The notes under the pieces were generated by a model. It was not told where the DNA came from and made no database searches. It saw only the letters and a list, made by a program, of their open reading frames with translations. DNA of 64,000 nt from Minisyncoccota bacterium (GTDB lineage: Bacteria; Patescibacteriota; Minisyncoccia; Phycocordibacterales; UBA2100), in NCBI GenBank assembly GCA_022842645.1, contig JALHPE010000002.1, positions 1,322-65,321 of the forward strand. The letters are read 5' to 3'. Positions 1,942-19,048 of this stretch are shown piece by piece. How positions within the stretch are numbered: the first letter of the stretch is position 1; every line of letters begins with the position of its first letter. A program made the position numbers and the translations under genes.

Positions 1942-3210
1942 TTATATAAACCGATTCGGAATTGGGAACTTCTTGCAGAGTTTTTCGACTTCCTTCTTTA
2001 TTTTCACCAATTCTTTTTTATTGTCTTTGTGTTTGAGCGCATCAACCATCCACTCGGCAACTTTCGCGCATTCTTTTTCTTTGAGGCCGCGAGTGGTGAT
2101 GGCCGGCGTGCCGAAGCGTATGCCGGAGGGATCCATTGGCCCGCGAACGTCATCGGCAATTGAATTTTTATTGAGCGTGATGCCGATGAGATCGAGTGTG
2201 TGTTCGGCGTCTTTGCCGGTGATGCCGAGGGAGCCGTAGACATCAGCGAGAAGAAGGTGGTTCGACGTGCCGCCGGTGAGAAGGCGAATGCCGTGTGCTT
2301 TGAAGACTTTTTCCATCGCTTTTGCGTTTTTTAAGATTTGCTTGGCATACGTGCGGAATTTGGGAGAGAGCGCTTCGCCGAAGGCGACTGCTTTTGCGGC
2401 AACTGCGTGCATGTGCGGACCGCCCTGAAGACCGGGAAAGACGGATTTGTTGATTTTCTTTGCCAATTCTTCGCTTTCGCGCACAAGGATGAGACCGCCG
2501 CGCGGGCCACGGAGGGTCTTGTGCGTGGTGGACGTCACGATGTCGAACCCGTAGTCGAAGGGGTTTTTGATTGCTTTTCCGGCGATGAGACCTGCGATAT
2601 GTGCGGCGTCCATGACGGCTATCGCGCCCACCTCGCGTGCGATAGAAACCATGCGTTTGTAGTCGAGCTCTCGTGGGTAGGCCGAAAATCCTGCAAGCAG
2701 GATTTTCGGCTTCTCTTTGAGTGCCACCTGTCGCATCTCGTCGTAATCAATCTCGCCCGTATCCGGATTCTTCATTTTGTAGCGCACGAAGCGGAAGATT
2801 TTGGTGAGATAGGTGACAGGGTGGCCGTGCGTGAGGTGGCCGCCATGCGAGAGATCCATGCCTAAGACGGTGTCACCCGGCTCAAGAAGTGCGAAATACA
2901 TCGCGAGGTTGGCATTTGCGCCACCGAGTGTTTGTACATTGGCATATTTCGCTTTGAAGAGCTTTTTTGCACGCTCGATTGCGAGTGTTTCTACGGCATC
3001 CGTGAATTCCTGCCCGCCGTAGTAGCGTTTGCCAGGATAGCCTTCGGAATATTTGTTGGTGAGGATGGAATAATTCGCCTCGCGCACGGCGCGAGAGGCG
3101 TAGTTTTCAGAAGGAATAAGCTCAAGTCCAATCGCTTGCCGCTTTTCCTCGCCGATAAGGGCGGCGTACACTTTTTTGTCTTGTTTTTTGGTGAAAGGGT
3201 ATAAATCCAT
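1942..3210 (-). CDS. glyA: Serine hydroxymethyltransferase
   Basis: SHGGHLTHGHPV and VTSTTHKTLRGPRGG PLP-lysine region, 422 aa. Confidence 0.9.
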   Translation of the reverse strand: MDLYPFTKKQDKKVYAALIGEEKRQAIGLELIPSENYASRAVREANYSILTNKYSEGYPGKRYYGGQEFTDAVETLAIERAKKLFKAKYANVQTLGGANANLAMYFALLEPGDTVLGMDLSHGGHLTHGHPVTYLTKIFRFVRYKMKNPDTGEIDYDEMRQVALKEKPKILLAGFSAYPRELDYKRMVSIAREVGAIAVMDAAHIAGLIAGKAIKNPFDYGFDIVTSTTHKTLRGPRGGLILVRESEELAKKINKSVFPGLQGGPHMHAVAAKAVAFGEALSPKFRTYAKQILKNAKAMEKVFKAHGIRLLTGGTSNHLLLADVYGSLGITGKDAEHTLDLIGITLNKNSIADDVRGPMDPSGIRFGTPAITTRGLKEKECAKVAEWMVDALKHKDNKKELVKIKKEVEKLCKKFPIPNRFI

Positions 3211-3249
3211 AGGTTCTAGGTGTTAGGGAGTAGGGTCTAGGAGGATAGA

Positions 3250-3302
3250 AATATTACGGACTTCGTAAATCCGTATATTACGGATTTACGAAGTCCGTAA
3301 TA
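3250..3302. repeat. 53-bp perfect palindrome (two inverted 25-bp arms, each with an internal TACGGA/TCCGTA hairpin), REP-like
   Basis: ATATTACGGACTTCGTAAATCCGTA-TAT-TACGGATTTACGAAGTCCGTAATAT. Core GGACTTCGTAAATCC resembles the REP core GGACTTCGTAAGTCC at 18325/18506/19024. Confidence 0.7.
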
Positions 3303-3332
3303 TGCATTTTGCAAGATTAGGTCATATGCAGA

Positions 3333-3668
3333 TTAGCGGTTGTCGCCGGAGCTTTTGATGACACCACGTGCTTGGCGATCTTGTATTTTTTGCACGTTAG
3401 CACGAGCTGCTTCGGAAAAAGGAAGATCCAGTAGGCGGGAAAGCTGCGAGAGATACCACAATACATCCCCGATCTCATTTTTGAGGGAATCACGGTATTC
3501 ATCAGTGAGTTTCCCATCGTTGTTACGAATTAGTTTCTTTATTTTTTCTGCAATTTCGCCACTTTCTCCTGCGATTCCGAGGGCGACGTACATCAATTTA
3601 TGCTCTTCTTGTTTGCCGTCGAATGTGGCAGTAGTGGTTGCAATTTTTTGATACTCATCAAAATCCAT
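3333..3668 (-). CDS. MazG-like nucleoside triphosphate pyrophosphohydrolase domain protein
   Basis: EIGDVLWYL motif typical of the MazG/NTP-PPase all-alpha fold. TAATG overlap with the tmk stop. Confidence 0.65.
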   Translation of the reverse strand: MDFDEYQKIATTTATFDGKQEEHKLMYVALGIAGESGEIAEKIKKLIRNNDGKLTDEYRDSLKNEIGDVLWYLSQLSRLLDLPFSEAARANVQKIQDRQARGVIKSSGDNR

Positions 3669-5959: not shown

Positions 5960-6490
5960 ATGGCGCGCGTCTCGGCCATCGCGGCGATTGGGAAGGGGCG
6001 TGTGTTGGGGAAAGATAATCAGCTCCTCTGGCACATTCCGGATGATTTAAAGCGGTTTAAAGCGCTCACGCTCGGACATCCGATTATCATGGGGCGGAAG
6101 ACGTTTGAATCTATTCTTGCAGTTTTAGGAAAGCCGCTGCCGGGGCGGACAAATGTTGTAGTGACACGCCATCCTGAGAATATGAAGGGTTTCGGAAATA
6201 CGTCATATGACGGATTTCCGAAACCCTTCATTTGGGCGGGTTCGGTGGAAGACGCGATTGAGAAGGCGAAAGACGCGCCCGGGGGCGATGAGATTTTTAT
6301 TGGCGGCGGCGGGCAGATATATGCGGAAGCACTACCTTTTACCGATAAGTTGTATTTGACGCTGATTGATGATGAGAAGGAGGGCGATTCTTTTTTTCCG
6401 GCGTATGAAGATGTGTTCACCGAGGTGGTTTTTGAAGAAGAGCGGGAACACGAGGGACTCAGATACACTTGGGTGGATATTGAGCGGTAA
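5960..6490 (+). CDS. folA: Dihydrofolate reductase
   Basis: ISAIAAIGKGRVLG...LLWHIPDDLKRFKALTLGHPIIMGRKTFESI. Confidence 0.85.
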   Translation: MARVSAIAAIGKGRVLGKDNQLLWHIPDDLKRFKALTLGHPIIMGRKTFESILAVLGKPLPGRTNVVVTRHPENMKGFGNTSYDGFPKPFIWAGSVEDAIEKAKDAPGGDEIFIGGGGQIYAEALPFTDKLYLTLIDDEKEGDSFFPAYEDVFTEVVFEEEREHEGLRYTWVDIER

Positions 6491-18306: not shown

Positions 18307-18324
18307 AATAGCTGGACCATACAC

Positions 18325-18349
18325 ATGTGGGACTTCGTAAGTCCCACAT
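18325..18349. repeat. REP palindrome ATGTGGGAC-TTCGTAA-GTCCCACAT
   Basis: Exact 9-bp stems. Confidence 0.8.
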
Positions 18350-18367
18350 GGACGTTAAGATGGGAGT

Positions 18368-19024
18368 ATGGATATTTATCACGTCCTCAATCGAGGTGTC
18401 GACAAGCGAACCATTTTTGATACACAAGCTGATCATGCACGCTTCATACACGACCTCTATGAATTCAACGATACCGCTCCGGCACCTGACGCGTATCGCC
18501 GCCCAATGTGGGACTTCGTAAGTCCCACATTGCGAGAAGAAAGGAAGATGTTGGTGGATATTCATGGGTGGTGTCTTATGAAGAATCATTACCACCTTTT
18601 ACTTTCTGAAAAACGAGAGGGTGGGCTAACGCTTTTTGTGCGCAAGCTGAATATTGGGTATTCAAAATACTATAACGACATACACAAGAGAACTGGAACC
18701 CTATTTCAAGGGAGGACGAAAAAAATACTCATTCATCAAGACGCACATTTTCTTCATATTTTACATTACATACATCTGAATCCTCTTGATTTCCTCGCGG
18801 ATACAAAAGAGTGGAGAAACGGACAGATTGCGTCGAAAGCAAAAGCACTCGATTTTCTATCGCAGTATCGGTGGAGTAGTTTGCACGACTATCAAGGGAA
18901 GAGAAATTTCCCCTCTATTCTTACCAAACACTTCTTCGAAGGCGCCTACGGTGGCGTTGCTCGACAACTACTGTCTCGCCTTGATGATATGGATTTGATA
19001 GGCATTGGGGAGCGTCTTGAATGA
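18368..19024 (+). CDS. REP-associated tyrosine transposase (IS200/IS605 TnpA-like, Y1 HuH)
   Basis: YHVLNRGVDKRTIF N-terminal motif and HuH motif NHYHLLL. Confidence 0.65.
   Translation: MDIYHVLNRGVDKRTIFDTQADHARFIHDLYEFNDTAPAPDAYRRPMWDFVSPTLREERKMLVDIHGWCLMKNHYHLLLSEKREGGLTLFVRKLNIGYSKYYNDIHKRTGTLFQGRTKKILIHQDAHFLHILHYIHLNPLDFLADTKEWRNGQIASKAKALDFLSQYRWSSLHDYQGKRNFPSILTKHFFEGAYGGVARQLLSRLDDMDLIGIGERLE
18506..18530. repeat. REP palindrome copy inside the RAYT coding sequence (encodes MWDFVSPT)
   Basis: Identical 25-mer. Confidence 0.8.
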
Positions 19025-19048
19025 TGTGGGACTTACGAAGTCCCACAT
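19024..19048. repeat. REP palindrome copy (loop inverted: ACTTACGAAGT) overlapping the RAYT stop codon
   Basis: ATGTGGGACTTACGAAGTCCCACAT. Confidence 0.8.

Follow-up and report, generated by a model that had tools for sequence, protein, structure and literature searches.

Most descriptions of RAYT/REP systems concern Proteobacteria, with a few other phyla besides. In the REPtron (Nunvar 2010, PMC2817692; Ton-Hoang 2012; Corneloup 2021, PMC8266576), two cognate hairpins, as a rule in inverted orientation, closely frame a transposase gene, and solo or doublet copies of the hairpin are dispersed. Every paralog is paired with a hairpin class of its own, with which the protein co-evolves. RAYTs also have specific motifs, namely an N-terminal Thr that is conserved and, following the Tyr, NP(L/V)(R/K)xG, together with two inverted flanking REPs (Nunvar 2010, PMC2817692), and there is a second RAYT group that uses perfect palindromes (Corneloup 2021, PMC8266576). 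The REPs described around RAYT genes in this literature are flanking ones only (Nunvar 2010, PMC2817692; Corneloup 2021, PMC8266576).

Two other systems are close enough to be compared. The TnpA transposases of the IS200/IS605 family (IS608, ISDra2) share the fold, the catalytic residues, and the presence of hairpins at the unit ends with the locus treated here. Palindromes within genes have precedents as well, for a few species have already been found to carry intragenic REPs or Rickettsia palindromic elements (RPEs) (Di Nocera 2013, PMC3733652). According to the account of RPEs (Ogata 2000) that is relayed there, these are in-frame palindromes in housekeeping genes, such as those for tRNA synthetases and DNA repair, which leave the host ORF intact; several insertions per gene are possible, and both filled and empty alleles occur.

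The locus described here lies in a 64-kb stretch of DNA, analysed at its full length and referred to below as the window. Its protein resembles the E. coli TnpA-REP enzyme (the RAYT YafM, PDB 4ER8) in having a Y1 HuH fold, a HuH motif, and a Tyr that is followed by NP, and the layout of the locus, the dispersal of its hairpin on related metagenome contigs, and the pairing of each paralog with its own co-evolving hairpin class are all REPtron-like. In contrast to known REPtrons, the gene belongs to the Patescibacteria (candidate phyla radiation), it encodes NPLD in place of NP(L/V)(R/K)xG, and it lacks the conserved N-terminal Thr. The hairpins have no GTAG/CGTC tag, a third cognate copy is located in-frame within the gene, and many copies elsewhere are intragenic. 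Compared with RPEs, as these are portrayed in the same secondary account, the units are much shorter (25–27 nt, or 9 aa), and a cognate Y1 transposase gene is carried by the same contigs, with one copy of the palindrome inside that gene.

We put at roughly 65% the probability that this is a Patescibacterial REPtron-like unit, comprising a Y1 HuH gene and its cognate hairpins, among them an ancient, homogenised copy within the gene itself. An earlier note on this DNA had proposed a RAYT gene with its REPs, and that interpretation was largely right; its suggestions of a recent duplication and of an extragenic repeat were wrong. In the searchable literature, which is incomplete, neither this family nor any Patescibacterial RAYT turned up, and no RAYT ORF was reported to contain a REP.

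The locus and its encoded protein

Three copies of one palindrome lie inside 725 bp of the window. The 25-mer ATGTGGGACTTCGTAAGTCCCACAT, which has the structure ATGTGGGAC-TTCGTAA-GTCCCACAT, occurs at 18325–18349 and at 18506–18530, and its exact reverse complement, with the loop TTACGAA, occurs at 19024–19048. No further match with up to two mismatches was found in the whole 64-kb window, and shuffled sequences lead to an expectation of 0. The features of the locus are as follows.

18324–18350, + strand: upstream hairpin, 12-bp perfect stem with loop CGT; 25-mer core at 18325–18349
18368–19024, + strand: transposase ORF, 218 aa, Y1 HuH (IS200-like/RAYT-like) ssDNA transposase
18504–18532, + strand: internal hairpin, 13-bp perfect stem with loop CGT; core at 18506–18530
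18587–18595, + strand: HuH motif codons CAT TAC CAC (H74-Y75-H76); H74 and H76 are invariant in the family
18767–18769, + strand: codon of Y134, in the motif H-Y-I-H-L-N-P-L-D; invariant putative catalytic tyrosine
19024–19048, − strand: downstream hairpin, exact reverse complement of the upstream 25-mer; the + strand loop is ACG

All three hairpins have perfect stems of 11–13 bp and a 3-nt loop, either CGT or ACG, and their folding energies as ssDNA range from −10.9 to −14.3 kcal/mol (z from −5.8 to −7.8). The 25-mer core of the upstream hairpin starts 18 nt past the stop of a ROK kinase gene and ends 18 nt ahead of the ATG, a gap that the earlier note had given as 16 nt. The first base of the downstream hairpin is the final base of the stop codon TGA (19022–19024), so that the two share this one base and do not overlap exactly, as had been claimed. 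In other respects the description in that note was accurate: a copy is present at the start, within the ORF, and, with its loop inverted, at the stop, and the gene is bracketed in RAYT fashion by exact inverted copies. The internal core also encodes the peptide reported, as codons 47–54 (M47-W-D-F-V-S-P-T54), N-terminal to the HuH motif H74-Y75-H76.

Across the locus, four independent assemblies of this one strain agree exactly. Chance and assembly artefact are both ruled out as sources of the repeat, given this agreement and the 0 matches in shuffles. A scan for promoter and terminator consensus sequences around the gene returned nothing above chance, and the hairpins are not followed by a T-tract.

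By fold and catalytic motifs, the 218-aa protein is a Y1 HuH tyrosine transposase, and by analogy with its structural relatives it would be catalytically active. The AF2 model has a pLDDT of 80. Its best PDB match in Foldseek is 4ER8_A, a complex of the E. coli RAYT with REP, and the TnpA proteins of IS608 and ISDra2 come next; the probability is 1.00 for 4ER8, 2VIC, 2A6O, and 2XO6, with target-normalised TM-scores of 0.55–0.66. It was fold comparison alone that found a transposase in the PDB, since sequence searches there with the protein and with the family profile as queries returned none. The model’s only internal low-confidence loop (pLDDT below 50) comprises residues 42–54, which include the hairpin-encoded peptide, and lies between the helix at 20–32 and the strand at 63–70.

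Profile searches place the protein at the edge of the described families. It passes Pfam Y1_Tnp (PF01797) marginally, with 24 bits against a cut-off of 23 over residues 60–136. It does not pass the curated NCBIfam RAYT model NF047646 (REP_Tyr_transpos), where it scores 36.7 bits against a cut-off of 80 (E 3.4e-9). Of the RAYT-specific motifs, Y134-IHL-NPLDF contains NPL without the (R/K)xG, and the Thr at position 15 of the window protein is variable across the family. The identification as a RAYT consequently stands in part: the Y1 HuH fold, the Pfam pass, and the top Foldseek match to 4ER8 bear it out, whereas the curated RAYT model, the missing RAYT-specific motifs, and the lack of a GTAG tag on the hairpins do not. 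The earlier note had allowed that the palindrome might occur only here, beside a protein without the catalytic Tyr and HuH. In fact, H74, H76, and Y134 (within Y-I-H-L-N-P-L-D) are invariant in both family alignments, and the hairpin is dispersed in related genomes. The family is large: 2393 proteins are homologous at E ≤ 0.001, species-representative genomes contain at least 551 loci, and all named homologs are Patescibacteria (Kaiserbacteria, Paceibacterota, Parcubacteria).

Conservation and concerted change of the hairpins

The family was compared across 80 homologous Patescibacteria loci from species-representative genomes. Of the 80 genes, 56 have a matched pair of hairpins, one ahead of the start and one behind the stop; an in-frame internal hairpin at the equivalent position is present in 55, and 38 combine all three. 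The layout is tight, with median gaps of 15 nt from hairpin to start codon and 3 nt from stop to hairpin. The flanking copies are inverted in approximately 23 of 36 scorable loci; this arrangement is therefore not universal, which counts against the REPtron-like reading. Loop orientation differs by position, being mostly CGT upstream, mostly ACG downstream, and close to 50:50 in the internal copy.

As far as sequence comparison can date it, the internal copy is old and not recent, because it is common to a large subfamily and occupies an equivalent in-frame place in 55/80 loci. The recent duplication suggested previously is contradicted by this shared position and by the covariation of the internal copy with the flanks. 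The peptide MWDFVSPT, which might have proved an insertion when aligned with orthologs, is conserved in close homologs and is thus no insertion relative to them. Variants such as MWDLRNPT correspond to a flipped loop in an unchanged frame, and across the family the DNA keeps its palindrome although the peptide read from it is free to vary. In the alignment with a clade that lacks the internal hairpin, the linker of that clade is variable and only some 4–5 residues shorter, with no clean 9-aa gap. The internal copy is also less well preserved than its neighbours: it is a perfect palindrome in 26/55 loci, compared with 41/66 and 46/62 for the flanks. It has decayed or been lost in about a third of the subfamily with the ORF intact, which argues against an essential role, and a distant clade has flanking hairpins only.

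Copies within a locus change together. Stems differ between loci yet stay palindromic, and the copies in one locus are nearly identical, with an 11-nt arm distance of approximately 0.8–1.05 within a locus as against 4.8 between loci. In an alignment of internal hairpins (n = 53), 91.7% of cells are paired, compared with 60.8% in shuffles and around 35% in slid controls; these loci were picked because they contain a hairpin, a choice that inflates the share of paired cells and leaves the diversity of pair types unaffected. All 12 of the 12 pairs in this alignment have changes on both sides. The top of the hairpin is conserved as GA(C/T)-TT-CGT-AA-(G/A)TC and an ATG/CAT foot is frequent, with the 4–5 bp in the middle defining the class. 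Mismatches are about equally often G-T (22) and A-C (27), and so carry no signature of RNA wobble. This parity, the unfixed loop orientation, and the lack of a terminator-like context would favour an element that acts at the DNA level.

Paralogs within one genome share 34–68% identity, and each has its own hairpin class. Judging from these sequences, the divergence of paralogs with separate classes is the pattern of RAYTs and not that of an active insertion sequence. At the site itself, an 88%-identical homolog (L134) is found in the same position, between the ROK kinase and P-type ATPase genes, and a 71% homolog is located in a different genomic place. In three syntenic relatives, with ROK proteins 69–75% identical, the order is ROK-(DUF5679)-ATPase, and the gene and the hairpins are both missing, so the hairpin–gene–hairpin block is present or absent as a unit. 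The upstream loop is ACG in L134 (1476–1500) and CGT in the window (18325–18349), with the stems and the other two copies unchanged. A flip between syntenic loci with 88%-identical proteins implies that loop inversion is fast.

A small difference at this junction concerns a small DUF5679 zinc-ribbon gene that, in L134, L138, and L140–L143, separates ROK from the ATPase or RAYT gene. It is missing from the window (18307–18324), and its absence beside the upstream hairpin suggests a deletion there.

Hairpins elsewhere in the window and in related genomes

A covariance model built from the internal hairpins and scanned over the window recovered only the three copies and two other elements.

3251–3303, no strand assigned: 53-nt perfect palindrome of two inverted sibling hairpins; intergenic, REPIN-like
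6182–6231, + strand: 50-nt near-perfect palindrome of two inverted hairpins of a third stem class; in-frame in the folA/DHFR ORF

The first of these consists of TACGGACTT-CGT-AAATCCGTA and its inverse, and its neighbours are glyA (−) and a MazG-like gene (−). It keeps the conserved top, GA(C/T)TT-CGT-AA(G/A)TC, on a different stem class, TACGGA(C/T)TT, for which no cognate transposase gene is present within the window. The second lengthens a loop of the folA/DHFR product (ORF 5960–6490, +) by approximately 14–16 residues compared with E. coli FolA. The DHFR of L099 has, in nearly the same loop, a single ATGTGGGAC hairpin, read as MWDFVSPT. The transposase locus had been listed among the few mobile-element-like features of a small genome; it is not alone in the window, which has these two further palindromic doublets, one of them in-frame in folA.

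An exact-stem scan of metagenome contigs yielded 53 stretches with 56 distinct copies in unrelated flanks, mostly not beside a RAYT-like family gene. The palindrome is thus a dispersed repeat, as had been supposed, with 56 distinct sites on metagenome contigs of related genomes and several of them to a contig set. The supposition that it is extragenic does not hold, since many copies are in-frame within genes that have Pfam-verified domains. These copies lie deep in long ORFs, on either strand of the host genes, and are read in frame as xVGL(T/R)KSHx or MWD(F/L)(V/R)SPT. Housekeeping Pfam domains are present in 17 of the 18 host ORFs that were tested. These 17 are PheT, ValRS, AlaRS, MurD, Tgt, UvrC, PGM/PMM, and MnmA, as well as a lyase, a class-V aminotransferase, TsaD, EndoIII (two), DHFR, HolB (two), and DprA. 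Copy number appears to be low, at about one per tens of kilobases on some related contigs. The 64-kb window contains no cognate copy outside the locus, which leaves dispersal in this particular genome a presumption.

Several host genes are informative about the events behind these insertions. One site in PheT exists as a filled allele (+27 nt) and as an empty allele. A second PheT site holds three different hairpins (L081, L083, L088) whose boundaries and frames are shifted, whereas the HolB site (L103, L133) has different stem classes with identical boundaries in two contigs. Identical boundaries in HolB and shifted ones in PheT suggest that hairpins may in some cases have been replaced where they stand and in others have entered permissive loops repeatedly. 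One 25-kb contig (L095 and L088) combines an insertion in PheT with a RAYT-like gene and the hairpins of that gene.

No conserved tag or target motif flanks the 56 dispersed copies, and there is no GTAG/CGTC at the foot. Positions −1 and +1 are complementary in 28/56 copies, so that the flanks tend to prolong the palindrome. It looks as if the dispersed hairpins had been inserted at the tips of existing palindromes or terminators.

Two further details of these copies can be recorded. In housekeeping genes, the loop on the sense strand is ACG (Thr) in about 14 cases and CGT (Arg) in about 4. Some copies (L081–L133) extend by 7 bp, for example as acacccc...ggggtgt.

A proposed mechanism and its rivals

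In a REPtron-like unit of this kind, the enzyme would recognise the folded hairpin on ssDNA, as do E. coli TnpA-REP and IS608 TnpA, and would cut and rejoin the DNA next to it by means of Y134 and a metal site at H74/H76. The two flanking copies would delimit the unit, like the REPs around RAYT genes. Solo hairpins would spread elsewhere, and many of the survivors would be 27-nt in-frame additions in surface loops of housekeeping proteins. The internal copy may itself be an in-frame insertion of this sort in the gene of the enzyme, at a disordered loop that joins helix 1 to strand 2, where ongoing homogenisation would keep it identical to the flanks. Such homogenisation could proceed by short-tract gene conversion between copies 150–500 bp apart, together with self-correction of the palindrome, or else by hairpin exchange catalysed by the enzyme, and a process of either kind would also explain the free flipping of the 3-nt loop. 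Gene conversion and palindrome self-correction are established mutational mechanisms and would suffice here.

A bolder version of the second route is that the Y1 enzyme swaps hairpins in place, excising one from ssDNA and ligating a cognate one into the gap in either orientation; we regard this as rather doubtful. If swapping does take place, every genomic copy, including those in the enzyme’s own ORF and in essential genes, would be kept in step with the drifting specificity of the enzyme. Loop flips would then be a by-product, and Patescibacterial proteomes would hold a moving set of 9-residue, hairpin-encoded inserts.

The internal hairpin could alternatively be a selected cis-regulatory site, where binding or nicking of the gene’s own coding ssDNA or mRNA, by the transposase or by some host factor, would limit expression or activity. 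What speaks for selection is that a perfect or near-perfect palindrome, always matched to its flanks, persists in the same in-frame place in 55/80 loci despite 40–55% protein divergence, and that the peptide drifts while the DNA remains palindromic. Homogenisation alone would yield the same pattern, however, and a regulatory site would not be expected to be kept less well than the flanks, to be lost or decayed in many loci with intact ORFs, or to be absent from a whole clade that has flanking hairpins. Its loop orientation of around 50:50 and the lack of a G-U bias are likewise unfavourable, and we consider regulation unlikely. Still further from the evidence is the proposal that the hairpins are RNA structures (a 5' stabiliser, a translation pause site, a 3' end protector) and not the DNA substrates of the enzyme. 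The three copies would share one transcript, and REPs elsewhere have been proposed as RNA elements (Di Nocera 2013, PMC3733652). Against this, loop orientation varies by position and flips between close relatives, G-T mismatches are no more frequent than A-C ones, the context has no T-tract and is not terminator-like, and the hairpin occurs on either strand of host genes; a role in RNA is therefore very improbable.

An ordinary, autonomous IS200/IS605-type insertion sequence, with the flanking hairpins as its left and right end structures and the whole element transposing, would account for the Y1 fold and catalytic motifs, for a block that is present or absent at a syntenic site, and for the 2–4 family members found in some genomes. 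These same-genome copies, however, share 34–68% identity and differ in their hairpins, which rules out recent transposition as their source, and identical multi-copy elements do not occur. In the IS608 family, the ends are different hairpins on one strand, whereas here both ends are the same perfect palindrome, usually inverted. In addition, solo hairpins are dispersed without the gene, the protein is longer than TnpA (218 aa, with a RAYT-like C-terminal extension), and there is no tnpB partner. Taken together, these differences make an autonomous insertion sequence an improbable explanation.

The REPtron-like reading would add to the RAYTs a large Patescibacterial lineage whose putative substrate is a very simple perfect palindrome. 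With three copies that evolve in concert and loops that flip between close relatives, such loci amount to a natural experiment on homogenisation and strand choice. They also illustrate that such repeats persist in ultra-compact genomes chiefly as in-frame inserts of 9 residues within essential proteins. Inserts of this kind affect gene annotation, alignments, and phylogenomics of Patescibacterial lineages.

In a few members of the family (L006, L042, L047, L048, with its gene at 2718–3389, and L058), a flanking hairpin is part of a longer perfect palindrome, with stems of 18–24 bp, or of a doublet.
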